A DNA stretch of 64,000 nt from Malacoraja senta (lineage: Eukaryota): the NCBI GenBank assembly GCA_038087875.1, contig CM075996.1, positions 4,714,001 to 4,778,000 of the forward strand, in the 5' to 3' direction. Below the pieces are notes generated by a model, which had not been told where the DNA came from, made no database searches, and saw only the letters and a list, made by a program, of their open reading frames with translations. Shown here one piece after another: positions 1,591 to 61,889 of the stretch (position 1 is its first letter; every line of letters starts with the position of its first letter). Both the position numbers and the translations under genes were made by a program.

Positions 1591-1772
1591 AAGGTAGACA
1601 CAAAAAGCTGGCGTAACTCAGCGGGACAGCATCTCTGGAGAGAAGGGATGACTGAAGAAGGGTCTCGACCCGAAACGCCACACATTCCTTCTCTCCAGAG
1701 ATGCTGCCCGTCCCGCTGAGTTACTCCAGCATTTTCTGTCTATCTTCGGTGTAAAACTGCAGTTCCTTCCTA
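1591..1772. mobile_element. Penelope-like element (PLE) terminal fragment, fold-back hairpin, subfamily A
   Basis: Arms (gctggcgtaactcagcgggac..ctctggagagaagg / ccttctctccagag..gtcccgctgagttactccagc) are inverted copies around CTGAAGAAGGGTCTCGACCCGAAAC. Confidence 0.75.
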
Positions 1773-1944
1773 CGCACAACGCCAGCACAGTTTGTTCTCT
1801 CTGAGAAACATCCTGAGACAGAAGCCAAAACCCTTTTATGTTTACACACTAGACCACGGATTGAAACCCCAATGGAATTGTTGATGGAGTCCATTGACCC
1901 ACCGGCCTGCTCTGGTCCAGAGAAAAAAAAACATTTGAAGTAGA

Positions 1945-2580
1945 CTACATCATCTTGTTGGAACTGACAGTGCCGTGGGAGGACCGTCTGGAGGAGGCCC
2001 ACGAGAGGAAGATGACCAAGTACGAAGAGCTGGTCATAGACTCCCATAGGCAGGGCCGGAAGGCAAGGTGTATGCCCATCGAGGTTGGCTGCAGGGGTTT
2101 TGCAGGGCAAAGCCTTGAGTGCGCTGGGCATCAACGGAGTGGCAAGGACAAGAGCCATCAAGAACAACACAGAGGCAGCGGAGAAGGCCTCGAGATGGCT
2201 CTGGATCAGGAGAGGAGGTCCATGGGGAGGGGCGGATGCCACCTGAACACAAGTCGTGGTCTGATCAACCACGGCTGGGTCGCCTGGGTGAAGGTGTCTG
2301 ATGTTGAAAGACCCGAAACACCCGACGACCCCGGGTTACATCACCGATGACTTGTTAAAGAAGGAACTGCAGATGCTGGAAAATCGAAGGTACATAAAAA
2401 TGCTGGAGAAACTCAGCGGGTGCAGCAGCATCTATGGAGCGAACGACAGTCTGAAGAAGGGTTTCGGCCCGAAACGTTGCCTATTTCCTTCGCTCCATAG
2501 ATGCTGCTGCACCCGCTGAGTTTCTCCAGCATTTTTGTCTACCTACATCACTGATGATGTGTTCAGCAGCATCAAGAGAT
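1945..2580 (+). mobile_element. HERO-like (restriction-like endonuclease) non-LTR retrotransposon 3' fragment
   Basis: LLELTVPWEDRLEEAHERKMTKY..PIEVGCRGFAGQSL, then after a frameshift NNTEAAEKASRWLWIRR. Interrupted at 2351-2543 by a PLE hairpin. Confidence 0.75.
2351..2543. mobile_element. PLE fold-back insert, subfamily B, with 14-bp TSD
   Basis: TSD tacatcac(c/t)gatga at 2337-2350 and 2544-2557. Core CTGAAGAAGGGTTTCGGCCCGAAACGTT. Confidence 0.8.
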
Positions 2581-3072
2581 GTATTTTTTTTTAATCAATC
2601 TCACATTTCCCCTGCGAAGTTGCATACTTTCCCTTCAAATATCCCCCTTTGCAATTACTGCACCTGCCTTCCTTTAAGGACAAAGCATCGCACACCACGA
2701 GAATATGCTGCGTGTGAAACAATTACATCTCAGTGTCTGGTTCTTGTTGCCAATTACCTGAAGTGCTCCACTAAAACATCTTGTCTTTGACAATCACCGT
2801 GTATCGCAGAGCCACTAATAAATGCTCATCTACCTGCTCGGATCTGACCACAGATGATCGCCTCAGTACAAACCCACCAACATTAGCAGAGGCGTTGGGA
2901 ATTATCAGGGGGTGTCAATTGACGTAAAATCAAAGCATTTCTATTTCTTCAGATTCTGCGGTAGACACAAAATGCTGGAGTAACTCAGCGGGACAGACAG
3001 CGTCTCCGGAGAGAAGGAAAGGGTGACGTTTTCGGGCTGAGACCCTTTCACCTTTGTGCGATATTAGTATGA

Positions 3073-3401
3073 AAGGCATGTTCCCGATGTTGGGGGAGTC
3101 CAGAACCAGGGGGCACAGTTTAAGAATAAGGGGTAAGGCATTTAGAACGGAAATGAGGAAACACTTTTTCACACATAGAGTGGTGAGTCTGTTGAATTCT
3201 CTGTCTCAGAGGGCGGTGGAGGCCAGTTCTCTGGACACTTTCAAGAGAGAGATAGATAGGGCTCTTAAAGATAGCGGAGTCAGGGGAGAAGGCAGGAACG
3301 GGGTACTGATTGGGGATGATCAGCCATGAGCACATTGAATGGCGGTGCTGGCTCGAAGGGCCGAATGGCCTACTCCTGCACCTATTGTCTGTTGTCTATT
3401 G
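3073..3401 (+). mobile_element. CR1-clade LINE (HER1-like) 3' end
   Basis: MFPMLGESRTRGHSLRIRGK..FFT.RVV..NSL motif. Tail GGCCGAATGGCCTACTCCTGCACC(TATTGTC)n. Confidence 0.85.
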
Positions 3402-3825
3402 ACACTTCCAGAGCATTGAGCGTTTTGAAGCGGTGAAGTGGATGTATATTATCGTTATCAGATATTGGAAGGGAAATATGAGATTCACCTTAATTATGTG
3501 TTACAAATCACCTTTAAAAAGATAATAAATTACTTTGTACCGAGGTACAGAGCAACGCTTTTGTTTGCGTGCTATCCAATTAAATCAGACAATACTACAC
3601 ATTAATAGAATCGAGCCAAACACAAAGGGTGGAGTGAAGAGAATGATACAAAGTGAGAAATAGAGTTCTCAGAATTGTGGCATGACGATTCCAGAGACAA
3701 GTCTAATGTCTACGATGAGCTAGGTTGGAAAATTGGGGCCCAACCCTAGTTTGTGGGGGGACTGTTCAGAAGTCTGATAACAGGGGAATAAGCTGTTCCT
3801 CAGTCTGTGTGGGGTAAAGTGGAGT

Positions 3826-4030
3826 AGAAGGGAACTGCAGATGCTGGTTTACACCGAAGATGGACACAAAATGCTGGAGTAAGTCGGCAGGTGAGACAGC
3901 ATCTCTGGAGAGAAGGAATTTTGTGATTTTTCTGCTGAAGAAGGGTTCTCGACCCGAAACGTCACCTGTTCCTCTTCTCCAGAGATGTTGCCTGTCCCGC
4001 TGAGTTACTCCAGCATTTCGTGTCTATCTA
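3826..4030. mobile_element. PLE fold-back hairpin, subfamily A
   Basis: Inverted arms around CTGAAGAAGGGTTCTCGACCCGAAACGTC. Confidence 0.7.
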
Positions 4031-4455: not shown

Positions 4456-4975
4456 ACAGACAATAGGTGCAGGAGTAGGCCATTCGGCCCTTCGAGCCAG
4501 CACCGCCATTCAATGTGATCACGGCTGATCATCCCCAATCAGTGTTTAAGAAGGAACTGCAGATGCTGGAAAATCGAAGGTAGACAAAAATGCTGGAGAA
4601 ACTCAGCGGGTGCAGCAGCATCTATGCTGCTGCACCCGCTGAGTTTCTCCAGCATTTTTGTGTACCATCACCAATCAGTACCCCGTTCCTGCCTTCTCCC
4701 CATATCCCCTGACTCTGCTATCTTTAAGAGCCCTATCTAGCTCTCTCTTGAAAGCATCCAGAGAACCGGCCTCCACTGCCCTCTGAGGCAGAGAATTCCA
4801 CAGACTCACCACTCTCTGTGAGAAAAAGTGTTTCCTCGTCTCCATTCTAAACGGCTTACCCCTTATTCTTAAACTGTGTGTGGCCCCTGGTTCTGGCCTC
4901 CCCCAACATCGGGAACATGTTTCCTGCCTCCAGCGTGTCCAAACCCGTAATAATCTTACATGTTTCAATAAGATA
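4456..4975 (-). mobile_element. CR1 LINE 3' end with nested PLE-B hairpin (4544-4665)
   Basis: ORF HSLRIRGKPFRMETRKHFFSQRVVSLWNSLP..GYGEKAGTGY. Nested insert flanked by catc(c/a)ccaatcagt at 4530-4543 and 4666-4679. Confidence 0.85.
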
Positions 4976-17404: not shown

Positions 17405-17935
17405 GTGTGGGAGGGAACTGCAGATGCTGGTTTAAACTGAAGATAGACACAAAATGCTGGAGTAACTCAGCGGGACAGGCAGCATCTCTGGAGAGAAGGA
17501 ATGGGTGACGTTTCGGGTCGAGACCCTTCTTCAGACTGGTTAGGGATAAGGGAAAAGAGAGATATCGACGGTGATGTGGAGAGATAAAGAACAATGAATG
17601 AAAGATATGCAAAAACATAACGATGATAAAGGAAACAGGCCATTGTTAGCTGCTTGTAGGGTGAAAATGAGAATTTTGTGCGACTTGGGTGGGGAGGGAT
17701 AGAGAGAGAAGGGCTACTTGAAGTTAGAGAAATCAATATTCATACCACTGGGCTGTAAGCTGCCCAAGCGAAATATGAGATGCCGTTTAGCTGCACTCTG
17801 ACAATGGAGGAGGCCGAGGACAGAAAGATCAGTGTAGGAATGGGAAGGAGAATTAAAGTGTTTAGCAACCGGGAGATCAGTAGGTCCAGGCGGGCTGAGC
17901 GAAGGTGTTCCGTGAAACGATCGCCCAGAATACGT
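17405..17935 (-). mobile_element. Penelope-like element 3' region (GIY-YIG end plus 3' UTR)
   Basis: Minus strand encodes LGDRFTEHLR..DLPVAKHFNS..HLIFRLGSLQPSGMNIDFSNFK-like sequence, followed by the hammerhead-like core and terminal arm. Confidence 0.75.
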
Positions 17936-18402
17936 CTCTTGCCTTGTTTGTGTGACCAGACCTTACTAAACAGCAGATAGACGACACAAGATGCTGGAGT
18001 AACTCAGTGGGACAGGCAGCATCTCCGGTGAGGAATGGGTGACGTTTCGGGTCGAGACCCTTCTTCAAACTGAACAAACAAACGTCCTTGGCTCCAAATG
18101 TTGAAATCGTGGCCAACCAATTAGCCACAGATGACCCACCGCTGACTGCTCTGGTGTTAAAGAAGGAACTGCAGATGCTGGAAAATCGAAGGTACACAAA
18201 AATGCTGGAGAAACTCAGCGGGTGCAGCAGCATCTATGGAGCGAAGGAAATAGGCAACGTTTCGGGCCGAAACCCTTCTTCAGACTGATAGGGGGTTCTG
18301 ACTGCTCTGGGTTCCTCTGCTCATGTACACACACTCCAGTATACAATACTCATGTGTACATCTGGGAGTCACTTTTTATGTGTAAGCGTGTGGTGTATGT
18401 TT

Positions 18403-19527: not shown

Positions 19528-19723
19528 CGAAGGAACTGCAGATGCTGGTTTAACCCGAAGATAGATGCAAAAAGCTGGAGTAACTCAGCGGGACAGGCAG
19601 CATCTCTGGAGAGAAGGAATGGGTGACTGAAGAAGGGTCTCGACCGAAAACGTCACCCAATCCTTCTCTCCAGAGATGCTGCCTGACCCGATGAGTTACT
19701 CCAGCCTTTTATATCTATCTTCG
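19528..19723. mobile_element. PLE fold-back hairpin, subfamily A
   Basis: Inverted arms around CTGAAGAAGGGTCTCGACCGAAAACGTC. Confidence 0.75.
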
Positions 19724-21993: not shown

Positions 21994-23057
21994 CGTTTTG
22001 TCTGCTGCACAGACTCAACACCACCGAACCTCTGACACTCGGTCCGTGAGGCTTCAATTGGGCCTAATCTCTCCTAAAGCCCCCCCCCCCCCCCAAAGTT
22101 TCGGCACTCCTTGCCACTGTTCGCCTCAGCAACACCAGGGGCATTCAGAGACCTCCCTTTGTCCCGCAACGCAGAAACCTGCAGATTGCAAACGCTACCA
22201 CAAGGCTACAAGGTGAAAAGAATGTAGCAGTGAGTCACACGTCTTCATTCTTTTACAAGTACATCCTTGGCACTTCCTCCACATCTCCCAGAGTGATAAA
22301 TAGAGTCAAAAAATACTCTAGCTCAAGGTTGTTCATGAAATGATTGTGCTTTGCTGTTACACTGCATCACCAAGGCAACAACTCTTTACACTGAGTTCAC
22401 CACCTCCACATTTAGTTCATTATTATTGTCAGATGTACCAAGGTACAATGAAAAGCTTTTGTTGTGTGCTTTCCAGTCAAAGAAAAGATTATGCATTTAG
22501 TTTAAGAAGGAACTGCAGAAGCTGGAAAATCCAAGGTAGACAAAAATGCTGGAGAAACTCAGCGGGTGAGGCAGCATCTATGGAGCGGAGGAAATAAATA
22601 GGGCTCTTAAAGATAGTGGAGTCAGGGGATATGGGGAGAAGGCAGGAACGGGGTACTGATTGGGGATGATCAGCCATGATCACATTGAATGGCAGTGCTG
22701 GCTGGAAGGGCCGAATGGCCTACTCCTGCACCTATTGTCTATTGTCTATTGAAATAGGCGACGTTTCTGATCGAGACCCTTCAATCTGAAGCACAGCTAC
22801 CCACGGTGACAATGCCACCAGTACCTGGCAAAGCCACAAGCACCACCGCCTCGAGGGTGGAGGGCCTCCCTTCCATTGGCTCCATCTGTACTTCACGCTG
22901 CCTTGGCAAGGCCACCAGCAGAATCAACAACCAGTCTCACCCCAGTCCCTCACTCTTCTCTCTTCCATCAGGCAAGTGGTACAGAAAATGCACACCAGAA
23001 TCAGGGACAGTTTCCTCCTAGCTGCTATCAAGCAACTGTACAGTCCTCTCATCAACA

Positions 23058-23640: not shown

Positions 23641-23806
23641 AGCTAGAGTGCGGTCCTGACCTCCCATCTACCTCATTGGAGATCTTTGAACTACCTTTGT
23701 TTAAGATTTGTAATTGTAATTAATTTATTAGCCAGTTATGTAAAACATACAAAGAATTTGATTTGTCATACAGTCATACCAAAAAAGCAAAAAGACACAC
23801 AATAAC

Positions 23807-24052
23807 TTGAAGGTAGACAAAAGTGCTGGAGAAACTCAGCGGGTGCAGCAGCATCTATGGAGCGAAGGAAATAGGCAACGTTTCGGCCCGAAACCCTTCT
23901 GGAAATAGGCAACGTTTCTGACCGAAACCCTTCCGGGTTTCGGCCCGAAACGTTGCCTATTTCCTTCGCTCCATAGACGCTGCCTCACCCGCTGAGTTTC
24001 TCCAGCACTTTTGTCTACCTTCGATTTTCCAGCATCTGCAGTTCCTTCTTAA
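23807..24052. mobile_element. PLE-B fold-back insert with 12-bp TSD
   Basis: TSD acacacaataac at 23795-23806 and 24053-24064. Internal duplication of GGAAATAGGCAACGTTTC..CCGAAACCCTTC. Confidence 0.8.
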
Positions 24053-24193
24053 ACACACAATAACATATTAGCTTCTTCCCTCCTTTTCTCCTGCGGTCGG
24101 GCAGTCAAACCATCCCGCAGTCGGGGCGATCGTAGCTCCCATGTCGGGGCGATCGAAGTTCCCGCGATCGGGGCTGTCGAAGTTCCTGCCTTT

Positions 24194-24538: not shown

Positions 24539-24599
24539 GCTGCAGTGCGGACGGAGATATGATACGGAAAAAGTGGCATCTCCACCGAGGAAAGAGATG

Positions 24600-25120
24600 T
24601 GGACTCTTATACATCGGCGAGACAAAAGACTGGGCGATTGTTTCGCTCCGTTCGCCTTCCTGATCTCCCGGTTGCTAAACATTTTAATTTTCCTTCCCAT
24701 ACAGACCTTTCTGTCCAAGGCCTCCTCCATCGTCAGAGTGAGGCTAAATGCAAATTGGAGGATCAGCATCTCATATTTCGCTTGGGCAGCTTACAGTGGT
24801 ATGAATTTGATTATTCTATCTTCAAGTAACCCGGGCATTCTCTCTCTCTCTATCCCTCCCCCAAGTACATTGCACCAGCTTCTCATTTTCACCCAACAAA
24901 TAGCCAACAATGGCCTGTTCCCTTTATCATCGTTAATTTTTGACATATCTTTCATTCATTGTTCTTTATCTCTTTCTCTGCATCATCCTCTGTATCTCTC
25001 GCTTCCCTTTCCCGTGACTTTGTCTGAAGAAGGGTCTCGTCCCGAAACCTCGCTCATTCCTTCTCTCCAGAGATGCTGCCTGTGTCCCGCTGAGTTACTC
25101 CAGCTTTCTTGTGTCTATCT
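24600..25120 (+). mobile_element. Penelope-like element 3' region
   Basis: GLLYIGETK-LGDCFA..DLPVAKHFNFPSHTDLSVQGLL..CKLEDQHLIFRLGSLQ (GIY-YIG-type), then CTGAAGAAGGGTCTCGTCCCGAAAC. Confidence 0.78.
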
Positions 25121-25280
25121 TCTATCTTTAATCGGACTTTATCTTGCGATATGTTGTACCCTTTATCCTTTACTTATGCAGTGTGGCAGCTTGTTTGTAA
25201 TCATGTGTAGTCTTTCCGCTGGCTGGTTAGCAGGCAACAAAAAAAAGCTTTTCACTGTACCTCGGTACCATAAACAAAAC

Positions 25281-26332: not shown

Positions 26333-26738
26333 CGTCTAATTGAATTCAAATCCATGTCCTCCGACTTCAAAGTGTCCTAAGCCAAAACGGCACCCATCCA
26401 TGTCCTCCAGTGGTGCTGCCTGACCCGCTGAGTTACTCCAGCACTTTGTGTCCCCCCCCCCCCCCCCCAATCTTTGTGTGCTCCTCCATCCATCGTTGCC
26501 TCCTGCTCCAGCCTCCTGTCACCTCCTCACCGCACTATTAGGAGCCATCATCTCAGGTTCTCGAGTTTGTTGCTTAAACGTGCAGCTCTATCGGCATTGG
26601 CGAGGCCGTATCTGGAGTATAGCACGCAGGGAGGATGTGGGGGCTTTGGAGAAGACCAGAACACTGCCTGGATTAGAGGGTTTCAGCTACAAGGATAAAC
26701 TTAGATCATTTCCCCTGGAACGTCAGAGGTTGAGGGGA

Positions 26739-26855
26739 TTAAGAAGGAACTGCAGATGCTGGAAAATCGAAGGGTTTCGGCCCGAAACGTTGCCTATTTC
26801 CTTCGCTCCATAGATGCTGCTGCACCCGCTGAGTTTCTCCAGCATTTTTGTCTAC
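26739..26855. mobile_element. PLE-B rearranged insert with 15-bp TSD, inside an old CR1
   Basis: TSD cagaggttgagggga at 26724-26738 and 26856-26870. Confidence 0.8.
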
Positions 26856-28151
26856 CAGAGGTTGAGGGGAGACTTGATTGAAGTATAGATTATGAGAGGC
26901 TTAGATAAGGTAGGTCAGAGCACCCCCCCCCCCCCCAAGAGTGGAAATGTCCAATAATAGTCATTCAAATTTCAATGTACCTTGATTGGTACATGTGACA
27001 ATAAACTGGCCTTGAAACCTTGAATAGCTACAAGGAGAGGAGGGAAAGTTTAATGGAGATGTGTATTTTTTTTTACAGAGCATGGTGGTGACCTGGAACT
27101 CATTGCCAGGGGTGGTGGCGGAGGCAGATGCAACAGCAGCGTTTAAAACACTTTTGGATTGGCCCGTGGAAGTGCAAGGAATAGCGGGATATGGATCACG
27201 TACTGACAGATGAGATCAGTTTAACTTGCCATCATGATTGGCACATTGTGGCCCTTAGCGCCTGTTCCTGTTCCTGCTCTGTACCTTTCTGTGTGTAGGA
27301 AAGAACTGCAGATGCTGGTTTAAAATCAAAGGTACTGTGGACGCAAAACGCTGGAGTAACTCAGCGGACAGGCAGCATCTCTGGAGAGAAGGGACGGGTG
27401 ATGTTTATGGTCGAGACACACTTCTTCAGACTCATCCAAGTCAGACTGATTCAGTCTCGACCTGAAACGCCACCCGTTCCTTCTCTCCAGAGATGCTGGC
27501 TGTCCCGCTGAGTTACTCCAGCGCTTTGTGTCTACCTGTATCTCTCTATGTTCTATCACCATATCTCCACCGCCCACCCACTGCTCTGAAATATTCCCTA
27601 AAATCCAGCTCTTGAAAACCAGGATTTTATTTAATGCTGGAGAAGTCCTATTTGTTACTTTTATTGTTGACCGGATGCCTAAAGTCGTGCCCAGAAGCAT
27701 AAACTAATTTAGCAATGAGCAATAAAGTTACTCATTGTAAATACACACATCTAGTATTGATGAATAATACATTGCTCTGGGAGAATCACATTGTGTATCT
27801 GCTTTATATCAATGACACATAACAAGCAGTCGTAGTTGGTTTGAGAGAGAGGTGCACTTAACTGAACTGTAGTTGCTGATTTACACCAAAGACACAAAAT
27901 GCTGGAGTAACTCAGCAGGTAACTTAACTGAACAACATGTTGAGACCTTAAGACCCCCGATTCCAACGGTTTTCTTTCTAGTCTGTATCATGAAACGAGG
28001 CGAGAGGGAGATGGGGGCGGGCGAGGGGCCGGGGGGCATGCTTGGGGTGGGGACGTTTTGTAAAGTTTGTACATTGAAGTTTTTCCCCGCCTGACCGGGA
28101 CAACACTCAGGTAATGGTTGAAGAAGCTACAGGTAACATGAATTATCAGAC

Positions 28152-28374
28152 AATGGACACAAAAAAGCTGGAGTAACTCAGCGGGACAGGCAGCATCTCT
28201 GGAGAGACGGAATGGGTGACGTTTCGGGGTCGAGACCCTTCTCCAGTCTGAAGTAGGGACTTGACCCGAAACGTCACCCATTCCTTCTCTCCAGAGATGC
28301 TGCCTGTCCCGCTGAGTTACTCCAGCTATTTGTGTCTATCTTCGGTTTAAACCAGCATCTGCAGTTCCTTCCTG
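28152..28374. mobile_element. PLE-A fold-back insert with 13-bp TSD
   Basis: TSD tgaattatcagac at 28139-28151 and 28375-28387. Arms about 80 bp. Confidence 0.82.
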
Positions 28375-28792
28375 TGAATTATCAGACCTTGCTTTCAGGA
28401 AAATCACTTCAAATTGCAGAGTAAAAACAACCCTCTCCAGCTCCCCCTAGAAACGTTGGCAGTTATTTCATCTCTGGTTGCCCCATCCCCTGCTGGTGGA
28501 AATAATAGATTTAAACGATCAAGTGAACGGAATTGAATCAGGAGCAGACCACAGATTAGCTGCAATATCCTATTTTATAAATGCAATCAAAAAGAAACAT
28601 GTTTCTCACAAGTCTGACATATGCTTTCCAAAAAAAGGCACAAAAATCACATTGGAACCCTGATTAAATTAGTTTGCCCGGAAAGCAACATTCATAATTT
28701 TTTTGGAGTGGAAATATAATTTGGCTCATCAATGTCCTTCACGACACACACACACAGACAAAATCAGCTGCTCTTTGAGCTTCGGACATCCG

Positions 28793-28944: not shown

Positions 28945-28984
28945 CTGAGGGAAGAGCAGGGGCGGCGAGTTAAACGCCGGCTGC

Positions 28985-32328: not shown

Positions 32329-32807
32329 ACTCCACCCATTGGGTCTGGGCCCATACTCAGCAACTACTCCCCGAATTAGTCCACAACATCACCACCACAT
32401 TTCCCTAACTTCAGGTAGCCCTGGCATTCTCTCTCTCATTCTCTCTCTCACACACACATTCTCTCTCCCTCTCCACTCCCCCAAGTCGCACCAGCTTCTC
32501 TTTTTCACCCAACAAAAATCAGGCTTGAAGGGCCGAATGGCCTAATCCTGCACCTATTGTCTATTGTCTAACAATGGCCCGTTTCCTCTATCACCGTTAC
32601 TTTTTTGCATATCTTTCATTCATTATTCTTTATCTCACTATATCATCGCCTATATCTCTCGTTTCCCTTGTCCCTGGCCAGTCTGAAGAAGGGTCTCGAC
32701 CTGAAACGTCTCCCATAGAGATGCTGCCTGTTACTCCAGCTTTTTGTGTCTATCTTTGGTTTAAACCCACATCTGCAGTTCCTTCCTGCACCACCACAAG
32801 CAATATG

Positions 32808-36872: not shown

Positions 36873-37749
36873 TATGAAGTGGGATTATGCTAACATCCTA
36901 TTTTAGCCAGCATGAACAATGAAGTTCTGCACCGAAAACTTCTGATGATTCAATAAAAACAATGGCACCAGTATTGAAAGACCAAGTAATTTTACACACT
37001 AATTATAATATACTTTTTCACTTCTTACCGATACACTGTTTTCTTCCACCATCTCAATCACGCAGGCAATGCAGAGCAACTGTTCCCTTTCCTGCATTTC
37101 GTCTCTAAACCGTACTGTCCAATGCCCATCGTGGCGGGAATGGCTCCATTCACAAACCACGTTACAGTTGCCAGGGCTCAAGTCCTCCATTTAACACAAT
37201 GGCTTCCCTCCCCACTAAAAACATAAATATTTAATTAATACAAGGTTAACATTTAGAGGGTTGCTAAAAGTCAGCTGCATAAAAATGATTTAGAGATGAT
37301 AACACGCATTTTAACATGATTTCAAATGAATGTTTTACAATCCAAATGATTTTTTTCCTGGATACAAATAACCACATTTTGCAATTTCTCCAGTGATGCT
37401 GCCTGACCTACTGAGTTACTCCAGCAGTTGGTGTCTGTCGATCTTTGGTATGAATCAATCAGCATCTGCAATTCCGTTATTACAGCTCTCTCGGTCCTGA
37501 TCCCTAGTCCTCTCCTCACACACCCACTTTATAGCGCAAATAACGCTGTCATTAAATCTCTGATCCATTATTCACACCAACCCTCTCAACCCCCTATAAT
37601 TGACCGAATGGGCCTCAACAAAACCCAGTAACTCATGCCCTCTGCCACCCTACCCACCACCAAAGATACAAGAGGAGCTCCTCTAGTACCTTTGCCCACC
37701 ACCCTCGCTTGTCCAGCTGCTGAGCTTCCACGTTCGCACACGTCGAATG

Positions 37750-37941
37750 TACGAAGATAGACCAAAATGCTGGAGTAACTCAGTGGGACAAGCAGCATCT
37801 CTGGGTTGTGGCCCTTCTTCAGACTTGACCCGAAACGTCCCCCATTCCTTCTCTCCAGAGACGCTGCCTCCTGCCCGCCGAGTAACTCCAACATTTTTGT
37901 GTCTATCTTGGGTTCAAACCGGCATCTGCAGTTCCTTCCGA
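37750..37941. mobile_element. PLE-A fold-back insert with 13-bp TSD
   Basis: TSD cacacgtcgaatg at 37737-37749 and 37942-37954. Confidence 0.8.
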
Positions 37942-38340
37942 CACACGTCGAATGCGTGCCTCAGAAAGGGCCAAGCATTCTCCGAGACCAGCCCCAAAAC
38001 CACGGCTGAGAAAGCAAACGCCACCCACGCTGCAGCAAAATGTCGGACTCAGTGGTTCTTCGCGCCTTCTTTCCCCGCCAGCGGACAACCTGCGCCGAGC
38101 GCGTGTCTCCGGCAGCGGCAGGGCGCGCCCACGGGGACCCGCGACCAAAGATGACGACGCCAGCCGCGCCCAAGTCTTAATTTACAAATCATTGGTAAAA
38201 AAAAAAGGCATTTAATATTCCAGCAAGATAATATTTAATAATAAATGCCCAAGTACTATTGTATATTCCTATTGTATATTGTATGTACTATTGTATATTC
38301 CTGCACCACTCTGCAACAAAGGAACAATCTAATGAAACAG

Positions 38341-38923
38341 GAATATTTCTTCCATCGAACGTGTCCAAATTCAAACCTTGAAGGGTTTCGGCCTGAAACG
38401 TTGCCTATTTCCTTCGCTCCATAGATGCTGCTGCACCCGCTGAGTTTCTCCAGCATTTTTGTGTACCTCCAAATTCAGGTAGCTCGATTTGTTACTAACA
38501 CCTATGAGAGAGAAGCGAGTGTTACCAAACTTCTGAATTCTCTGGGGTGGAACCCTCTCCAAGACAGACGTGAAGCTCACCGTTTGACCTGTTTTTACAA
38601 AATGTTAAATGGTCAGCTCGACATAGATTACAAGACCTACACCAAACCCAAACCAATTAGGAGCAGACGAGGGCATTCGATCCAATTTGTGATTCCAGCT
38701 ACCAAGACAGATGTGTACAGCAATTCGTTCTTCCCCCCGCACAATTAAAGCATGGAATAATCTCCACCCTACTATAGTTACCCAACCAGATGCAACTAAA
38801 TGTAAGGTAGCTCTTTCTTCCCAAAAACCCTTTCTGGCTTAAGTCCTCCCTCCACCACCTCCAGTTTAAATTCCATTTGGAATATTTTGGAGGACCAAGA
38901 AACCAAGAACCAAGAACCAAGAA
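38341..38923 (+). mobile_element. Second copy of the divergent CR1-group LINE, with nested PLE-B fragment
   Basis: ARFVTNTYEREASVTKLLNSLGWNPLQDRREAHRLTCFYKMLNG. PLE insert flanked by tccaaattca duplicates (~38364 and ~38468). (CCAAGAA)n tail. Confidence 0.82.
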
Positions 38924-40054
38924 TAGTGCTTTGACCTGAAGAAAATTATCAAGGACCCTGCTGTTTACTGTGTATATCCTTCTGTGTATATGAAGTATAT
39001 GAAGAATCCTGTGTATATGAAGTTATACTGTGTTTAACTTCACACTTGCATGAGTTAAATTCCATTTGCCAATCCTTGCCCAATTTCCCAGTTGATCTAG
39101 ATCCTGTTGTAATCTTACATAATCTTCTTCACTGTCCATTATACTACCAATTTTGAATTCTCATCCAAATAGTTAATATTGTTGTAGACCTAGCACCGAT
39201 CCCTGCCCCACACCGTTGGTCACAGGCCTCCAATCTGAATAACACCATGCTTTTTTCATTACCTCTCTAAATTAGTTACTACAATTAATATTTTTCCCCA
39301 AACGTTCCGCCACTAACGCTTAGTCAACGTGAAACACATAACCAGGCCCAGCAATGCTTCATTAGGATAGAAATATATTGATAAACGTTCTCTTGAACAT
39401 ACTTCAGAAATACCTGAGTGAAAAACAAAATTCTGGAGGAACTCAGCAGATCAGGCAGGTGGTGCGGAGGGAAATGAACAATGTTTTGTGTCAGACTTGA
39501 AGAAGATTCCTGACCCAAAACGTCATATGTCCATTTGCATGCACAGATGCTGCCTGACCTGCTCTCTGTTTTCAGCGCTCTGTATTTTGCTCAAAATTTC
39601 AGCAACTTCAATCTCTTGTTTTCAGAAATGTCTTCAACTTTGTAATTTATGCACAGTATCCTGCACAATATTTAGGAAATTAATATCACCATTATTCCCT
39701 GTTTACATTTCATGCACTTCTCTCAAGGAAATGTATTCTGTCCTTCACTCCTTCAGAACATTGTATCTGCTCCCATTTTCCCTTTTCCTATTTTTTTGGA
39801 ATATTTAACCATGAGACCTGTTATTTTTATAGCTGCCATAAAAACAAGTGCTAATTTAGTCTGTGATGATCCTAATTAATATTTCACAAATTAGATGTAA
39901 TTGCTTTAAAAAAATGGAATTAATTGCAGAAAACAGGCCTTCCAGATTGCTATGCTACTAATAACTTTTCAAATTAGTATTCTATTTCACTCCCATATCC
40001 ATAACTTCAAATCATTTTCAAATGACAGCTATGATCTAACTGAGTAGTAGATTA

Positions 40055-44270: not shown

Positions 44271-45829
44271 AGGAGATGCTGCCGGAGAAACTTTTTAGGG
44301 TCACTAGTACATTCTACAGATAATGCTATTGCAGATATGTTGCATTGGGGAGTGGATATGTAAACTACACTCTTTGTGGGGATGGGTGCTCTGGTCGGGT
44401 TTAAATCGGTAATGGCCTGTTTTCAAGCATATATATAAATCAGAGACAATGACGTAGGCTTGAAATTACTCACTAGAGTTTTATTAAGCATTATACTGTA
44501 GCCAAGAACATAGAAGGATCTTGTGATTTCTGAGCATCTGGCACATTGCAATCTGTTTTGTTAAATAGTCCTAAATTTACAAAAGGAAGAGACTATAGCA
44601 CAATAATAAAAAAAATGCAGTCTAATCCAGGGTTATACATTGGTTTGAAATGGAGTCAGATATCTTTCACTCATCCCCAAAGTACAGGATGCTGATTCCT
44701 GAAACTAGTTCTGATTACTCCTGCTTTATGCTTTTTCAATAAGGACACATTTTTATCTTGCGGGTATACCTAACACAGAGCAGCTAGTGACCATTGCCTG
44801 TCAAAATATCTGTAACGAAATTCCTTGATATGTCAACAGTAGGCATGCATCATTTATTGCATTCAAAATTCTGTTCCATTTTATAATATATATATATATT
44901 TTTTATTCTCGTTTTTGAGAATTTCTTCCCTCAGGAAAAGGAAATGGTAATTTGCGATGCATTTGTCACAAAATTGTTCCTTATTTTATTAATGATATGT
45001 CCATGATGAGCTTATTAACAAAAAGTGTCTGTGCAGATTGTTTAGATAAGTTGTCAGCAAGCTGGAAGCTTAGATCCGCATAGAACCCAAGCAAAGACGT
45101 TTGGATGACTTTTCTTAAATGTTAGTCCTATTAGAATTCTATTTTTGCAAAGGTTAAATTGATGAACTCATGCAGTGCCCTCTAGGCTAAGAAAGGGAAC
45201 AATCAACAAAAGCTCCTACTAGTCATTATCATGAAATGACTCCTGCTGCAAAGTGCACGTCATCTATGCCTCAGTCAGTAGCTGAGAGAGAATGGTGTTC
45301 AGACCCATTCCAAAAACCTAAGCACAGAATCCAGGCTGCCACTGCGGTACATTTTTGAAAGGGGTGCCGCACTATCAGAGTAGTATTAAAAAGGCAAAGG
45401 AGTTCTCTCAGTTATCCTGGTCAATATATACCTTTCAACCTATATCGCCAAAACTGGTCATCTGATGATAATGGGATGACGCAGGTACAACTTGGCTGCA
45501 GTGACTATAGTTTAAAGATAGGTAGACAAAAGTGCTGGAGAAACTCAGCGGGTGCAGCAGCATCTATGGAGCGAAGGAAATAGGCTACGTTTCGGGCCGA
45601 AACCCTTCTTCAGATACTTCACTGGTTGTAAACAATGCAGGATTTTTCCAGATTGTAAAAGGTGTCATATAAATGGTGGCTCTTCAAGTCTTGAACTTTT
45701 TCCAGGTCTTTTTTTAAGCTCATGTTTCAGTAGCCACTGAATCTGCTTCTGGAGTTAGTCATTGGGGCAGTTGCTTCACGTTGCTAAGCTATTGACGGAT
45801 GATGGGGCCACTGAGGCTTTTGTCATAGA

Positions 45830-47360
45830 ACACAATGCTGGAGTAACTCAGCGGGTCAGGCAGCAACTGTGGAGGACATGGATAGGTGATGCTTTAGGTC
45901 TTGACCCTTCTTCAGACTGATTGTAATAGGGAAGAGACAGCTGAAAAAAGTTGGGGCACAAGCTTGACGAACCCTGGCAAATGATTGGTGGATACAGGTG
46001 AGGGGGGGGGGAAGGGGGGGGGTTGATTGGCAGGTGGGTGGGAAAATGCAAGAGATGAAATTATCAAAATGGTGACAAAAGGGCCTAAAGGAGACAAGGA
46101 GTCACAAAGATGTCAGATCAGGAGAGGAGTGAAATGTAAAGCCAGAAGAAGGGATATAGGTGGAAGGGTCCGGGGGAGGGGAGGTAAAGGTGCGGCATAG
46201 TGGGTGAAATGGGAGTAAGGGGAGGGACAGGAAAGAGAAGGAGGGGGGTGTGGGGTAGTAGAAAAAGCAACAAAAGAGGGGTGTTACCTAAAATTGGAGA
46301 GTTCATAAACTACCCAAACGGAATTTGAGATATTGCTTCTCCAGTTTGTGTGTGGCTTCAGTCTAGCAATGGAGGAGGCCCGGGACAGTTAGATCAGTAT
46401 GAGAATGGGAAAGGAAATTAACATGGTTTGCAACTGGGAGACCAAACAGGCCCTGGCATACTGAGCTGGCTTGGCTGGCGGTGAGGGGAGCCCTCCCAGT
46501 CAGATCCTTCCTGCACCGTCGGAACCTCACTACCAGTGCACGCTGCCGTCGGGACGGCTGCTATGGAGAGGAGACGGTTGCCCACCTCTTTGCAGAGTGT
46601 GGATTTGCAAAAAGAGTCTGGAGAAGTATGCAAGGGTCCCTGGAATGCTTTATCCCGAACAGCTCCGTCACAGAGGACTCTGTGATTTACGGACTGTTCC
46701 CAGGGACACATTCAGAGACTGACATTGAGTGCTGCTGGAAGGTCATCAACTCGGTGAAAGACGCTCTTTGGTCTGCCCGAGCGTTGTTCACCACCCAGCG
46801 GAGTGAGATGTCCATCAGGGAATGTTGCCGACTGGCCTGCTGCGGACTGCAGGAGTACGTGCTGAGGGACGCACTGAAGCTCGGTGCAGCCAACGCCAAG
46901 GCTCAGTGGGGGAGGACCACAGCCTAGGGTCCTTTCGCTGCTGGACATGGAGGGCAGGGTGTGGTGGAGACGCCCCTCAAAATAAGGGAAGGAATCCCAC
47001 GCCAGTGGGCCACGTGAATGGCAAGGATGGGGGACAGATTCGTGAAATTTGAGCAATGTATATAGACTGTATCGGACAATTTGTATAGCCTCGGAAAATG
47101 TGTGATGAGTTTTTCGCACGGTTCATGTATTGTATATATTTATTACCTGAATAAAGTTTATTTTGAAATATAAAAATTAAAAAAAAATACTGAGTGTAAA
47201 TGTTCGGTGAAACAGTTGTCTCGTCTATGCTCTGTCTCATCAATGTAAATGAGGTCCCATCTACAGTGCTGAATACAGTGGTTGAGATTAAACGAGGTAC
47301 ATTTGAACCTCTGTCTCACCTGAAAGGGCTGCTGGGACCCCTGGAGAGAGGTAAAGGTGG
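45830..47360 (-). mobile_element. Old Penelope-like element 3' region interrupted by a Tx1 insertion
   Basis: Terminal arm and CTGAAGAAGGGTCAAGACCTAAAGC on the minus strand. GIY-YIG remnants at 46300-46460 and 47195-47340. Confidence 0.65.
46466..47186 (+). mobile_element. L1/Tx1-clade LINE 3' end (zf-RVT/CCHC region)
   Basis: WLAVRGALPVRSFLHRRNL..CRRDGCYGEETVAHLFAEC..LWSAR. AATAAA plus A-rich tail. TSD atactgag at 46458-46465 and 47187-47194. Confidence 0.85.
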
Positions 47361-52344: not shown

Positions 52345-54385
52345 CAAGGGACAGTATCCATTGACATCTACCACTGACTCCTGTAACTACATTGACTACA
52401 CATCCTCCAACTCAGTCTCTAGCAATTATATCATTCCTTTCCTGCAAGGACATTGTTTCTTTCTTGTAGTTTCTCCATCTCTGCTACATCTGCTGTAGAG
52501 ATGTGGCTTTCTACTCTAGGCCATCTGAGATGTTTTCTTTTTCAATTAACATGGTTTCTCCCTCCCCCCCCCCCAACACCCTACAACAATTGTGGATTTA
52601 ACCCTCACCTGTGTCTCCTCCGTTTCCTGCTATTCTGCTCTTACCCCCTCCCTCCTAGATAGATTTGAGATAAATCAAGTCAAGTCAAGTCAACTTTATT
52701 TGTCACATACACAGACAAGATGTGCAGTGAAATGAAAGTGGCAATGCCTGCGGATTGTGCAAAAACTACAAAACAGAATAGAACAGAATCAGTATTTACA
52801 TTTACATTTTAGAGACACAACACAACAGTAAATTAGTACAGTAAATTAGTCCCTGGTGAGATAAGAGTTTACAGTCCTGACGGCCTGTGGGAAGAAACTC
52901 CGTCTCATCCTCTCTGTTTTCACAGCATGACAGCGGAGGCGTTTGCAGTTGGAACAGTCTGTTGCTGGGGTGGTAGGGGTCCCCCATAATGTTGATGGCT
53001 CTGGATCTGCACCTCCTGGTGTATAGGTCCTGCAGGGGGGCGAGTGTAGTTCCCATAGTGCGTTCGGCCGAACACACTACTCTCTGCAGAGCCTTCCTGT
53101 CCTGGGCAGAGCTGTTCCCAAACCAGTTTGTGATGTTGCCAGACAAGATGCTTTCTACAGCCCCAGAGTAGAAGCACTGAAGGATCCTCAGAGAGACTCT
53201 GAATTTCCTCAGCTGCCTGAGGTGGTAAAGGCGCTGCCTTGCCTTACTCACCAGTGCGGCAGTGTGTGTTGTCCATGTCAGATCCTCTGTGATGTGGACT
53301 CCCAGGTATTTAAAGCAGCTCACCCTATCCACAGTAGTCCCATTTATCTCCAGTTGCGTGTACGTCCTCTTATGTTTTCCCTGGTCCTCGCGTTTCACCC
53401 TACCAGCTTCCACATTCAAAACATCAATCTCTGCTAATTCCTTCACATACAATCTTTCGCCGCCACATGTCAGACCACCTATCCCCACCCCTTTCTGCTT
53501 TCCGCAGAGACCTCTATCTCTGCAACACCTTTGTTTACTCATGCATCCCTCTCACAGCCACTTTCCACTGCAACTGCAAATGATGCAACACCTTCTCTCT
53601 CACCTCCATTCAGGGACCCGAATAGCCCCTACCAGGTGAGATAGTATTTACGTCAACCTTCTTCACCCTCATTTGCATTTAGTGGCCTGATGTACATCAG
53701 CGAGACCAAGCAACTGTAGACCAGAAGACTAGGCAACTGCTTCACTGAACACTTGCGCTCTGCTGGGCCTCCCAGTTCCTAGCCATTTAAATTCCTCTTC
53801 CCATTCCCATTCCGACCTGTCTGTGCTTGGCCTCTTCCACTGCCAGAGTGAGGCCACACACAAAATGGAAGAACAGCACCTCATCCCACCCCACCCCACC
53901 CCACAACTTAGGTAGCCTACAACTCAAAGGCATGAACATTGAATTCTCCAGTTTCAGGTAAACCCCCTCCTTCTCTACCTCTTCTTGTCCCATTTCTTTT
54001 CCCATCTCCATCTACTTATCACCCACCCCTCCTTACTCCAGATCACTATTTATCTCTCATCACCCACTATTCCTTTCTCTGGTTCTATATTTCACTCCCG
54101 TCTTCAATCCTTACTAGACTCCACATCTTTTCTTTCCAGTTCACCTCCAGCCTTGCTTACTATCTCCAATTATCCTTACTCACCTGAATCCACCTATCAC
54201 TTACATCTTTCCCCAACCCTTCCCCTCACCTCTCTTTAACAGCTTGCTCCCATTTATTCCTTCAGTCGGAAAAAGTGCCCTGGCCTGAAATCTGACTGTT
54301 TCCCTCCACAGATGCTGCTTGGCCTGCTGAGTTCCTCCTGCACTTTGTTTTTTGTTCAAGATCTTAGCATCTCCAGTCTCTTCTG
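52345..54385 (+). mobile_element. Degraded Penelope-like element (RT end, GIY-YIG, 3' UTR), split by a Rex1 insertion
   Basis: Remnants resembling DIY..TDS.NYIDYTSS at 52360-52410, MYISETK..LGNCFTEHLR..HSHSDLSVLGLFHCQSEA at 53685-53880, and a degenerate hammerhead-like core at 54263-54298. Confidence 0.65.
52676..53372 (-). mobile_element. Rex1/Babar-like LINE 3' fragment
   Basis: LEINGTTVDRVSCFKYLGVHITEDLTW..KARQRLYHLRQLRKF. (TTGAC)n tail. Confidence 0.88.
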
Positions 54386-58790: not shown

Positions 58791-60147
58791 ACATTAAAAT
58801 CTTTGATAAACACTTCAAAACACAAAAATATTCAAAATATTTGAATGAACATTAAAAAAAAAAAAATGTTCCAAACCATTAGAATCATAGAGTTGTAGAA
58901 CTATACAGCGTGGAAACAGACCCTTTGGCCCAAGTTGTCCATGCAAACCAAGTTGGCATTTTGTGCTCGTCCCATTTGTCAGCATCCATGTAAACCTTTC
59001 TAAGCCATATATCTTTCCAAATGTATTTTGAAACTCATATCTACTTCTATTGCTGCTTCTAGCAGCTTACACCAAATACAGATTACCCTCTGAGAGAAAA
59101 AAGTTGCCCCTGAGGTTCCTCATCTCACCAATCATCAACCCGATGAAAAATGTGAGTGTTCACTAAATCCATGCTCCTGATGATTTTGTATACCTTAGTA
59201 AACTCACCCTCCGACTCCTAGGCTCAAAATAAAAAGTCCCGGCCTCTCCCTAACTGAAGCATGCAAATCCAGGTAATATCCAGGTGAATCTTTACTGCGC
59301 CCTTTCTAACTTAAAAGCATCATTAACACTTATATTTAGTTGGTTGCTGTCTATTGAAAGCAGTGAAGCGGAGATCTCTCTAAGACAGATCTAACTTGGC
59401 ATAGTCTGTTCATGTAGATTCCTGGTGAGAATCTCTGCAGCTTTGTGCTTCATGCTGGAGACTATGAGGAATCTTGCATTAGAGTATAGTCAAGGAAACA
59501 ATGGCAAACAGCTGTCAACGAGTTTAAGAATGCTGCATTCATATACGTGCAGTAATTGCAAACTTACTGCCATTTATGTGACAAATTCTGTAAATTATAT
59601 ACGAAACTGTCAGCATTTGACTTCAAAATGCAGCACAATATCTCTCATGTTTACCTGATATGAGAATGTAATAAAAGAATGCAAGCTTTGCAGCCAGCTC
59701 TTAAAGGAACATACCATTACACCAAGTGTGGGGTGTGCTGCCAAAGAGCTCAGTTATTTGGGCAAGAAAAGATCCTTTACCATAGTTTACTTTTTCACTT
59801 CAGACCTGTATTGCTCCAATCTCACTTTGTAAGCATTAAGCATACATACTATTTTTTTTTAAATCATTTCTATGCAGCAAAAAGCACCCATGCATAAAGA
59901 ATCTTATTTAGACAGAGGTAATTAACATGCATTTGGAAGAGCCAATTGTATATTTAATTTTTTGTTACAATCTCCTGGGCGTGATCAGATATATCTGAGG
60001 ACAATACAAGAGACCAAGCGTAACAGGCCAGCTAAGCCGACCCATCTAGCAGTGTTCAATAGCAATCTTCAAGGAAACAATTTATAGTTGTCGGTTGAAA
60101 GGTCTGTATCCATGGGGGGAAAAGGCAGTTTGATACTTTTATCACAT

Positions 60148-61045
60148 TTCAAAGGGTTCAAAGGGTATTTTATTGTCATGTATATCAATTAAGGTACAGT
60201 GAAACTCGATTTACCATACGGCCATACTATAAAAAGCTACAAAACACACAACTACATAAAAGTTAACATGGGGTCAAGGAAAGAGCGTTCACGTCGCGGC
60301 TCTGTTTTCACCAATCTTTCCACCACCACGCACAAGAAGCACAAGAAGCGCAAGACAGACACCATTGTATGCAGATGCCGAGAAGTGTGTTCAGCTCTGG
60401 CTTCTAATCTTGTGTGTGGACTCGATAAGAAGAAGAAAGTTAACATAAACATCCACCATAGCAGATTCCCCACATTCCTCACTGCGATGGAAGGCAATAA
60501 AGTCTAATCTTCTTCACTCTTTATTCTCCCGCGGACGGGGCAGTCGAACAATCCACAGTCGGGGTGATCAAAGCTCTCACAGCCGCCGATTGAAGTGGGG
60601 CGGTCGAAGCTCTCGCGATCGGTGCGGTCAAAGCTCCTGCGGCTTGGAGCTCCCGAAGTCGGTCCCTAACCAAGGGGACCGTGAGCTCCACAATGTTAAA
60701 GTTCGCACGCTCCCGCGGTTGGAGCTCCAAGGTCGATCCCCGACAAGGACCACCAGCTCCACGATGTTAAGTCCTGCAGGTTCTCACGGTTAGAACTCCC
60801 AAAGTCGATCCCCAGCAAGAGGCCGCCAGCTCCTCGATGTTAGGTCGCAGCGCGGACGGAGATACGATACGGAGAAAAATCACATCTCCATCTAGGTGAG
60901 AAATCAAAAAAAGTTGCCCACAAACCCCCCCACATTAAAAAAAGTGAAACAACACTAAAACATACATTTAACACATACTAAAAAACAACAAGAGAGAAAA
61001 GGACGAGACAGACTCTTGGCGAAGAAAACATTGCGGCACCACGCA
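60148..61045 (-). mobile_element. Non-autonomous retroposon with CpG-rich internal tandem units, plus a nested insert (60270-60435)
   Basis: Homologous to 23715-24600. Minus-strand AATAAA plus short-repeat tail at the left end. Nested insert has TSD aaagttaacat and an (AAG)n tail. Confidence 0.6.
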
Positions 61046-61424
61046 GTTGCCAGTTTATATCCAGAAAAATTAATTATTGTACATTTAATGATACTGTCTC
61101 TGAGAGGTTTTATTCAGGTCATTGACCTGAAGTATTTAAACTAATTTCTCTCTCAACAGATACTGGCAGATACACTGACTATTTCTGTCATGTTCAGTTT
61201 TTATTTCAGCCTCAAGTCTTTGCCTTATTTGGCCTTATTAATTGGTTTTAGTGATGTTGGGTACGGGAAAAATAATTGTCCGGGGCACTTTTAGTATGTT
61301 GGGATAAGTTAGAACACCTGAGGTGTTGCTTTAAAATCTGATACAAAAAGTATTGTAATCGCTACTTTATGTGATCACATCTCCAAAGGAAGGCTTTAAC
61401 TCTCAAACCTTTTATTCAGAGTTT

Positions 61425-61481
61425 ATTCCTTCGCTCCATAGATGCTGCTGCACCCGCTGAGTTTCTCCAGCACTTTTGTCT
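61425..61481 (+). mobile_element. Very short PLE-B arm insert with TSD
   Basis: accttttattcagagttt repeated at 61407-61424 and 61482-61499. Confidence 0.72.
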
Positions 61482-61889
61482 ACCTTTTATTCAGAGTTTG
61501 GCCACTAAGTATCATTTGATAACTGGAACAAAAAACACAAAATGCAGGGGGACCTCAGCAAGTCAATCCGCATCTTGGAGGCAAAAAGTGTAAGTCGATG
61601 TTTCAGGTCAAGACCCTGCATCAGGGCTGAGAGGGAAGAGGAAAGATTGCCTATATGTATTGTAGCAGGACATTTGGAGTGAGGGGGTCGGGGGGGGGGG
61701 GGGGGGTGCAGAGGAATGAGGGATGCAGGGGGATGGAGGCTGGTTGGTGATAGATGGAACCAGGTGGGGATAGGGGATGGGAAATGTGAACAAATGTGAA
61801 CAGCCTGACTTCAGTGGTTGGTAAAAGTTTAGAGTCCATTATAAATGATACGGTTATGAAGTACTTGAAGTTCACGATAAAATAGGTTG

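Follow-up and report, generated by a model that had tools for sequence, protein, structure and literature searches.

The short fold-back inserts dispersed through this 64-kb stretch of skate DNA (the window) are almost certainly the dead remains of Penelope-like element (PLE) insertions with extreme 5' truncation, and each of the 13 head-to-head pairs combines one tail-bearing arm with one tail-less arm. An arm comprises the last ~40-130 nt of the pLTR and contains a short stem-loop region besides the minimal hammerhead core, with or without a tail of ~30 nt. With arm coordinates referenced to the longest A copy (17409..17962), the outer end lies at +90..95 on one arm and at +119..128 on its partner in all 12 parsed pairs, the tail being on the left in seven and on the right in five. 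If ends were drawn independently, this one-tail rule would have p ~2e-4 (first 12 pairs); all pair statistics describe one 64-kb window and 13 pairs. The preliminary description had both target strands priming at the same RNA end, which is not supported because the arm ends lie ~26-36 nt apart in every pair, in the 12 parsed and in the thirteenth alike.

The inserts and longer copies are listed below, with target-site duplications (TSDs) given as left/right positions.

1591..1776 (.), A-type head-to-head pair with the tail on its right arm; TSD not found; (ATT)n run on the left flank
2337..2557 (.), B-type pair (2353), tail left; 14-bp TSD 2337/2544 (1 mismatch); minimal hammerhead core intact, 2451-2478
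3829..4029 (.), A-type pair, tail left; junction filler of 15 nt; TSD not found
4530..4679 (.), B-type pair (4542), tail left; 14-bp TSD 4530/4666 (1 mismatch); host a dispersed repeat
17409..17962 (-), longest copy of type A: C-terminal GIY-YIG remnant (17717-17962), spacer rich in pyrimidines, hammerhead core (17507-17534) and an end bearing the tail
17967..18072 (-), A arm lacking the tail, in tandem with the endonuclease remnant and immediately upstream of it
18142..18310 (-), single tail-bearing B arm, the B reference; 13-bp TSD 18142/18298
19529..19722 (.), A-type pair (19518), tail left; right end adjoins another repeat; no TSD found; junction close to that of 1591
22500..22782 (-), tail-bearing B arm, split by another repeat (22597-22752) with a 6-bp direct repeat
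23795..24064 (.), B-type pair, tail right; 12-bp TSD 23795/24053; 34-nt filler repeating part of the left arm; segregating sites +56/+57 differ
24586..25122 (+), tail-less A arm preceded by a spacer and by an endonuclease remnant that runs from the YIGET motif to the stop
26724..26870 (.), B-type inversion (26741), left arm tail only, right arm +5..+91; 5-nt microhomology; 15-bp TSD 26724/26856
27297..27537 (.), A-type pair (27288), tail left; possible decayed 16-bp TSD; two rare variants common to both arms
27856..27933 (-), short single tail-bearing arm; 12-bp TSD 27856/27922
28139..28387 (.), A-type pair (28153), tail right; 13-bp TSD 28139/28375; ~420 nt past the GCAT stop codon
30038..30239 (.), B-type pair (30050), tail right; 15-bp TSD 30038/30225 (1 mismatch); GCAT intron, ~37 nt upstream of the acceptor
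32144..32344 (.), A/B-intermediate pair (32154), tail left; 16-bp TSD 32144/32329; GCAT intron; arms mutually closest
32400..32786 (+), PLE 3' remnant: endonuclease stop, spacer, tail-bearing arm; split by another repeat at 32516-32567
37737..37954 (.), A-type pair (37753), tail right; 13-bp TSD 37737/37942; internal deletion in left arm
38364..38477 (+), single tail-less B arm; 10-bp TSD 38364/38468; empty paralogue at 12951
39409..39617 (.), old diverged head-to-head pair, tail right; the 13th pair, from the profile search
45825..46467 (-), an older copy in which a spacer separates the endonuclease remnant from a tail-less arm
53482..54384 (+), an older copy with a Cys-linker and endonuclease remnant, joined through a spacer to a tail-bearing arm
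61407..61499 (+), single tail-less B arm; 18-bp direct repeat 61407/61482, its first 5 nt also fitting the element

Census and Penelope identity

The arm family is larger than the ten inserts originally listed, eight of which are head-to-head pairs and two (38364 and 61407) single arms. In the window, blastn gave 53 arm matches grouped into 36 loci, whilst a profile search (E<1e-3) gave 52 matches covering 4,964 bp (7.8% of the window) and including the 13 pairs. Inserts measure 54-246 bp, the pairs being hairpins of 117-246 bp with both arms truncated within the pLTR. Both proposed subfamilies exist, with a mean pairwise identity of 83.6% for A (25 copies) and 94.0% for B (15 copies), alongside A/B intermediates (32154, 30050) and older diverged copies.

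All ten direct-repeat pairs reported earlier were found, at 10-18 bp, and two more (18142/18298 and 27856/27922) bring the window total to 12 TSD-bearing sites in the same size range. That these are true target-site duplications is supported by a low background, the same search giving a repeat of >=10 bp at only 2 of 300 random intervals, and by empty paralogues in the window for two of the 12 sites (13 for 4530, nine of them in exact register, and one for 38364), in which the repeat is present once; for the other 10 sites the window holds no empty paralogue. Three of the 12 parsed pairs have no TSD that could be found (1591, 3829, 19529), and the decayed candidate of a further pair (27297; 16 bp, 3 mismatches) is equalled in score by 8 of 200 random loci. 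No target motif was found at the TSD edges, the duplications being 59% AT as against 54% for the window.

The PLE origin is supported by five longer copies in which the arm is joined to GIY-YIG endonuclease remnants. Four of the seven matches of the remnant at 17717-17962 are skate proteins, at 63-71%, one of which led to proteins of 813-927 aa with a C-terminal GIY-YIG match in all eight tested (above the Pfam cut-off in three) and an RVT_1 match ahead of it in six; the same remnant matches one of these long relatives directly (45% over 51 aa, E 2e-9). None of the window's own six endonuclease fragments gave a Pfam GIY-YIG match, no RT remnant of the PLE was found in the 64 kb, and subfamily B was never seen there joined to an ORF remnant. 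A Zn-finger-like Cys motif, which is a feature of the Neptune/Nematis clade (PMC8557442), occupies the RT-EN linker of all eight long relatives and recurs in decayed form at 53482-53673 and 47188-47418 of the window; judged from these sequences, the source element was probably an endonuclease-positive (EN+) PLE of Neptune/Nematis type. The long copies also carry a donor-like motif at the stop codon, a pyrimidine-rich spacer and an acceptor-like AG before the hammerhead (altered in 25022), features that would suit a retained spliceosomal intron.

A minimal-hammerhead descriptor matched the window eight times, always within arms, as against once in 30 shuffles combined, with a helix II of 4-5 bp and a helix I of only 0-2 bp in seven of the eight. 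The putative ribozyme, a sequence match whose core is partly lost in most hairpins, resembles the minimal PLE hammerheads (Cervera and de la Pena 2014 PMC4209133) in its core, in an extra base before helix II, in a G-C closing pair and in a palindromic CG that replaces helix III; metazoan PLEs are described there with dual hammerhead motifs 100-700 bp apart on opposite strands. Rfam returned no hammerhead family among 23 matches at E<=1, and its miRNA-type matches are generic hairpins below the gathering score.

Arm pairing and the routes to an inverted pair

The junctions between arms show microhomology or templated filler. The claim that they differ in each copy holds for most of the 12 parsed pairs, at least 11 being distinct, but those of 1591 and 19518 are nearly identical, although these two pairs carry the tail on opposite arms. 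In four pairs (2353, 3829, 19518, 26741) the tail-less arm includes 26-91 nt that are missing from the tail-bearing arm, and therefore neither arm is a simple copy of the other; in seven of the 12, as parsed, the tail-less arm is nested in its partner. The arms overlap by 42-88 nt in 11 of the 12 pairs, so that either the same RNA segment served as template twice or the arms came from two templates. Three of four testable B pairs have arms that differ at sites segregating among other B copies, the differences in 2353 and 4542 being in opposite phase; the chance of such allele differences is 3e-4 to 0.02, a post hoc and assumption-dependent estimate. Ranked by identity, the partner comes first of 24 for the arms of 32154 and second of 14 for those of 30050; this ranking does not settle the matter, since a young copy can be expected to lie closer to an arm than its partner does.

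The reading that we consider most likely, and rather probable, is that both target strands prime cDNA synthesis from different starts, often on separate templates, and that the two cDNAs are then end-joined. The RT-endonuclease, predicted to be a dimer for the anole element, would nick both target strands 10-18 nt apart; one target 3' end would prime at a distal internal start and the other at a proximal one ~30 nt upstream of it, in many cases on another RNA or another pLTR. Both cDNAs would abort early and end joining would link them head-to-head, a single arm with a TSD representing the case in which one cDNA had near-zero length. The one-tail pairing matches in vitro results on an anole PLE, for which two internal RT starts on either side of the tail, the extension of both strands and a predicted dimer were reported (PMC11167929). 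Formation at integration, as opposed to the copying of one MITE master, is likewise supported by the asymmetric ends, variable junctions and TSDs of 10-18 bp; variable junctions do not by themselves prove that the hairpins formed de novo, for the centre of a palindrome can also be deleted afterwards. More tentatively, and with somewhat less than even confidence, it may be proposed that two-ended, asymmetric integration is obligatory for PLEs, with a dimer always priming one cDNA per strand from a tail start and a tail-less start, frequently on two RNA templates.

Self-priming (PMC3846280) and endonuclease-mediated resolution (PMC8557442) have both been discussed for PLEs, and together they offer an alternative that is possible but unlikely, in which a single cDNA primed at the tail start folds back into a hairpin and is resolved by the endonuclease at the proximal site, so that one end keeps a tail. 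This would explain the strict one-tail rule directly, as well as the seven nested pairs, the 1-8 nt of microhomology at four of 12 junctions, the near-palindrome that immediately precedes the hammerhead core at the junction of 28153 and the rare variants common to both arms of 32154 and 27288. It is at odds, however, with the four clearly non-nested pairs (26741 by 91 nt), the segregating-site differences in three B pairs, the tail-less single arms with their own TSD (38364, 61407) and the in vitro evidence that RT does start at the proximal site. The within-pair similarity of the arms of 32154 and of those of 30050, with the shared variants of 27288, also fits one source or homogenisation.

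Less probable still is that longer canonical insertions (an inverted pLTR plus a 5'-truncated copy) later collapsed by cross-palindrome deletion and had their alleles mixed by gene conversion. The arms of 37753, 32154 and 1591 do show internal deletions, and longer remnants of the same family are present in the window, but even the young B pairs, whose arms are 93-97% alike, are short, single arms bearing a TSD also end near the hammerhead core, none of the 12 pairs keeps spacer or ORF sequence between its arms, and the origin of the inversion itself is left unexplained. Later palindrome-centre deletion or gene conversion could, in their own right, yield non-nested arms and allele differences.

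Copying as units from a few non-autonomous hairpin masters, whether MITE-like or retrozyme/SINE-like, is very improbable and in this window largely refuted: the one near-recurrent junction and a homogeneous subfamily B not seen joined to an ORF are set against ends unequal by 26-36 nt in 12/12 pairs, and so not symmetric terminal inverted repeats, TSDs of varying length, at least 11 junctions among 12 pairs, the opposite tails of the similar two, and the lack in the window of tandem arrays of hammerhead units, same-strand neighbours (13527/13640 and 17409/17967) being mixed-subfamily or ORF-separated. An assembly artefact or chance inverted repeats, suggested by a gap at 36673-36872 and the difficulty of assembling palindromes, are highly improbable given TSDs far above background, arms that differ within a pair, and contigs of run X1 (0-2 differences; possibly the assembly's own sample) that extend out of unique flank into 30050 and 32154 by 37 and 38 nt.

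Relation to known elements, age and host context

The class of element and its anatomy, an inverted pLTR plus a one-sided tail, are already known, and therefore this is not a new element type. Complex insertions of EN+ PLEs comprise a pLTR, an adjacent inverted 5'-truncated copy, a 30-40 bp tail at one end and a short TSD (Arkhipova 2013 PMC3846280; Craig 2021 PMC8557442). The skate inserts share the head-to-head inverted pLTR ends, the one-sided tail (here 26-36 nt), the TSD, the pLTR hammerhead, the C-terminal GIY-YIG and frequent 5' truncation, but differ in that both arms are truncated within the pLTR, in their density (13 pairs per 64 kb) and in a tail on exactly one arm of every pair, where published tails are 'optional' or 'often' one-sided (PMC3846280, PMC8557442); the TSDs also exceed the 8-10 bp of rotifer examples. 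As in PAc, the green anole PLE of the Poseidon clade (Frangieh 2024 PMC11167929), two preferred 3' ends bound the tail, the hammerhead lies upstream and the distal end runs into an AC-rich stretch, whereas no AT-rich cut motif is evident in the skate window and the clade differs; in the sections considered of that paper, the two RT starts are not linked to inverted pairs. The element characterised in vitro thus belongs to another clade. Non-LTR retrozymes (bioRxiv 10.64898/2026.07.22.740005) are likewise short, non-coding, PLE-derived sequences with type I hammerheads, known from a cartilaginous fish among other hosts, but are head-to-tail tandem units, whereas the skate inserts are head-to-head pairs or single arms; no head-to-tail type I hammerhead array occurs in the window. 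The inserts do not fit the definition of MITEs either, given their unequal ends, TSD lengths and junctions.

In twin priming of L1, the second target strand primes a second cDNA, producing an inversion inside the TSD. The 26741 inversion has exactly this non-overlapping form, unlike the other 11 overlapping pairs.

The value of the inserts lies in their strict long-end/short-end pairing, which hints at how inverted copies form; their origin, like that of one-sided tails, is described as an open question in PMC8557442 and PMC11167929. Abundant short, TSD-bounded pairs make three models countable by tail pairing, arm nesting and allele phase on thousands of copies. If true, the obligate asymmetric rule would explain the inverted pLTR, one-sided tail and TSD of all EN+ PLEs, would make elasmobranch genomes a very large natural record of asymmetric PLE integration and would imply that these genomes generate their own class of intronic dsRNA stems of ~60 bp.

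That the inserts are among the latest here fits subfamily B but not the older A, and other repeats have since inserted into a B arm (22597-22752) and a PLE remnant (32516-32567). Some hosts are presumably CR1 and HERO; of nine ORF stretches compared with Pfam to name the host repeats, four gave RVT_1, zf-RVT and ALKBH8_N-like matches, and the two around 2337 and 4530 gave no family. Four runs searched against 23500-32600 were swamped by repeats, with no empty-site joint among the 15 listed of ~21,960, and summed read depth there gives no copy number. At the 28153 insert, contigs of X2 and X4 begin 30 and 28 nt within the tail, below the 31-letter rule, which is no more than a hint of a shared older insertion. 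A metagenome scan gave 19 exact 19-mer matches, none extending into an arm, and no viral contigs.

Folding far exceeds that of shuffles at 4544-4665 (z -13.9) and 28152-28374 (z -21.5), but not for single arms (z about -0.9) or the 26724 inversion (z -0.54), whose arms barely overlap and form no long hairpin; RNAalifold on 17 tail-bearing arms gave a weak structure (-3.6 kcal/mol, two-sided change in one of nine pairs) and did not show a conserved RT-binding stem. The pairs, with a median stem of 60 bp and two of the 13 lying in GCAT introns, are a plausible source of dsRNA stems and, if transcribed, would be ready ADAR substrates; lizard Penelope repeats are heavily edited (PMC5625713).

Arm anatomy and element identity

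The repeated unit of the inserts, here termed the arm, is the pLTR 3′ end of a Penelope-like element (PLE) and occurs as two subfamilies, A and B. Read on the strand termed sense, it consists of a minimal hammerhead core at position 0 followed by ~125 nt. A descriptor built from the motif description in PMC4209133 returned 8 matches, 8/8 of them within arms, versus 1 match over 30 shuffles. Helix I is just 0-2 bp in 7/8 of these matches, and an Rfam search of the window did not call the arm hammerhead. Five longer copies extend upstream of the arm through a pyrimidine-rich spacer into the end of an ORF:

Spacers from endonuclease stop to hammerhead, with donor-like and acceptor-like ends (motif reading)
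17717-17540, minus strand, stop-to-hammerhead spacer
24826-25022, stop-to-hammerhead spacer
32400-32680, stop-to-hammerhead spacer
53958-54262, stop-to-hammerhead spacer
46290-45920, minus strand, stop-to-hammerhead spacer

The donor-like motif overlaps the endonuclease stop codon, and the spacer could be read as having the look of a retained intron. The arms derive from an EN+ Penelope-like element, whose Cys linker, a clade feature used for Neptune/Nematis placement in PMC8557442, points to a probable position in the Neptune or Nematis clade. ORF-linked copies are all A-type or older, and no B arm joined to an ORF was seen among the copies in the window. Six predicted elasmobranch host proteins (P0001-P0004, P0008 and P0010; e.g. 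neuromedin-U receptor and receptor-transporting proteins) terminate in PLE endonuclease sequence, reflecting either annotation read-through or exonisation. A repeat family of 73-bp tandem units, at 24184-24537 and 60633-60904, adjoins a PLE remnant at 24586.

One tail per pair and the formation of pairs

Outer arm ends fall into two classes, +90..95 and +119..128, the longer class carrying an outer tail of ~30 nt before which the shorter, tail-less class ends. Each of the 12/12 parsed head-to-head pairs combines one arm of each class, the longer lying on the left in seven and on the right in five. Since single arms use both classes, independent choice would make roughly one pair in two mixed, and 12/12 mixed pairs would then have p about 2e-4. 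The two arms end 26-36 nt apart in every parsed pair, and a 13th, old pair is also tail/tail-less; the proposal in the preliminary description that both strands prime at the same RNA end is thus not supported. At 13527-13737, a tail-less B arm is followed on the same strand by a tail-less A arm, with 13 bp between.

As described in PMC8557442, PMC3846280 and PMC8969392, the standard layout of a PLE insertion places a tail of 30-40 bp on one end, beside an inverted and truncated copy. Frangieh et al. (PMC11167929) showed that the tail of an anole PLE spans the interval from one internal RT start to another, and demonstrated cutting and extension of both target strands; the protein is a predicted dimer. 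The simplest reading of the pairs, and one we regard as reasonably probable, is that two primers, one on each nicked strand, would engage two different RT starts on the same or different templates, with early termination of the two cDNAs and then end joining.

Fold-back self-priming with endonuclease resolution is a possible but clearly less probable route. Copying of one arm from its partner should leave the tail-less arm nested within the tail-bearing arm; this is so in 7/12 pairs, marginally so in the pair at 23809 (4 nt), and fails in 4/12 by 26-91 nt. The pair at 26741 is an inversion with non-overlapping arms and in this respect resembles L1 twin priming, which yields non-overlapping inversions. 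Regarding templates, the four testable B pairs show 10 arm differences over 210 columns, of which 4/10, in three pairs, hit alleles segregating among other B copies (chance 3e-4 to 0.02, post hoc), in opposite phase between the pairs at 2353 and 4542. Rarer variants common to both arms of 32154, 30050 and 27288 count against a two-template reading. Later collapse of longer insertions, accompanied by gene conversion, is improbable as a source of such pairs.

Among the 12 parsed junctions, that of 2353 is blunt, 4/12 have microhomology of 1-8 nt, 2/12 a 1-nt insert and 5/12 a filler of 15-34 nt, largely made up of repeated or continued arm sequence. Fixed MITE-like masters are very unlikely; the one near-recurrent junction, in 1591 and 19518, has tails on opposite arms. 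An artefact is the least likely explanation of all; contigs of sequencing run X1, near-identical to the window, reach 37 and 38 nt into the 30050 and 32154 inserts, and are not independent support because the assembly itself may come from the X1 sample.

Published work already covers the element class, inverted copy, tail, target-site duplication (TSD), hammerhead and opposite-strand hammerhead pairs; the tail-pairing dataset provides a testable lead on the PLE insertion mechanism. The inserts lie outside the definition of non-LTR retrozymes in bioRxiv 10.64898/2026.07.22.740005, and that identity was rejected.

Target sites, abundance and age

All ten direct-repeat pairs first described were recovered at their coordinates (10/10; 10-18 bp, at most one mismatch each), and two more, 18142/18298 and 27856/27922, bring the total to 12 sites, against a background of 2/300 random intervals positive in the same search. 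Empty host-repeat paralogues were found in the window for 2/12 TSD sites, both sites' paralogues carrying the repeat once: site 4530, which holds pair 4542, has 13 (9 in exact register) and site 38364 has one (8/10 bases alike). The other 10/12 have no empty paralogue within the window. TSDs are clean in eight of the 12 parsed pairs, doubtful and decayed in one and absent from three. The family is denser than first noted, with 53 arm matches at 36 loci; in a separate profile search, arms cover 7.8% of the window and form 13 head-to-head pairs.

The view that these are among the latest insertions holds for B copies, which share 94.0% mutual identity, but less well for A copies (83.6%). Other repeats interrupt a B arm (22597-22752) and a PLE remnant (32516-32567), and PLE activity therefore overlapped with host-repeat activity.

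Folding and neighbouring genes

Tested pairs fold strongly (z -13.9 and -21.5), with the exception of 26741; 11/12 pairs have stems of 42-88 bp and the remaining pair has none, the median being 60 bp. Heavy editing of Penelope repeats in lizard, and of a palindromic repeat in frog, is described in PMC5625713. GCAT introns hold two of the pairs, ~37 and ~73 nt ahead of acceptors; a third pair is situated ~420 nt past the GCAT stop codon, ahead of the first polyadenylation-like hexamer at 27665.

Host genes and assembly gap in the window
36305-28796, minus strand, GCAT exons, residues 198-425
36673-36872, single assembly gap
11215-11890, plus strand, Rhodopsin-family GPCR (7TM receptor) exon, Pfam 7tm_1

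One GCAT exon matches the Leucoraja erinacea protein at 98% identity and its Rhinoraja counterpart at 96%, which marks the DNA as that of a skate. The exons encoding GCAT residues 1-197 did not turn up in the window, the assembly gap lying just upstream. The GPCR exon is presumably galanin-receptor-like, and a motif scan of the window did not find its first exon. The duplicated target 30038-30052 / 30225-30239 holds a putative branch-point-like heptamer (motif reading) of a GCAT intron; insertion would thus have duplicated it, leaving one copy ~25 nt before the acceptor. Two copies of a CR1-type 3′ repeat, 299 bp apart, form a 142-bp inverted pair (22611-22752 / 23052-23193), another potential dsRNA source. 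A CPEB3/HDV-like ribozyme gave a weak Rfam match at 60258-60321 on the plus strand (32.1 bits vs a gathering score of 35). An AT-rich 39-bp inverted repeat at 7994-8084, within another repeat and unrelated to PLE arms, yields several sub-threshold miRNA-type Rfam matches.
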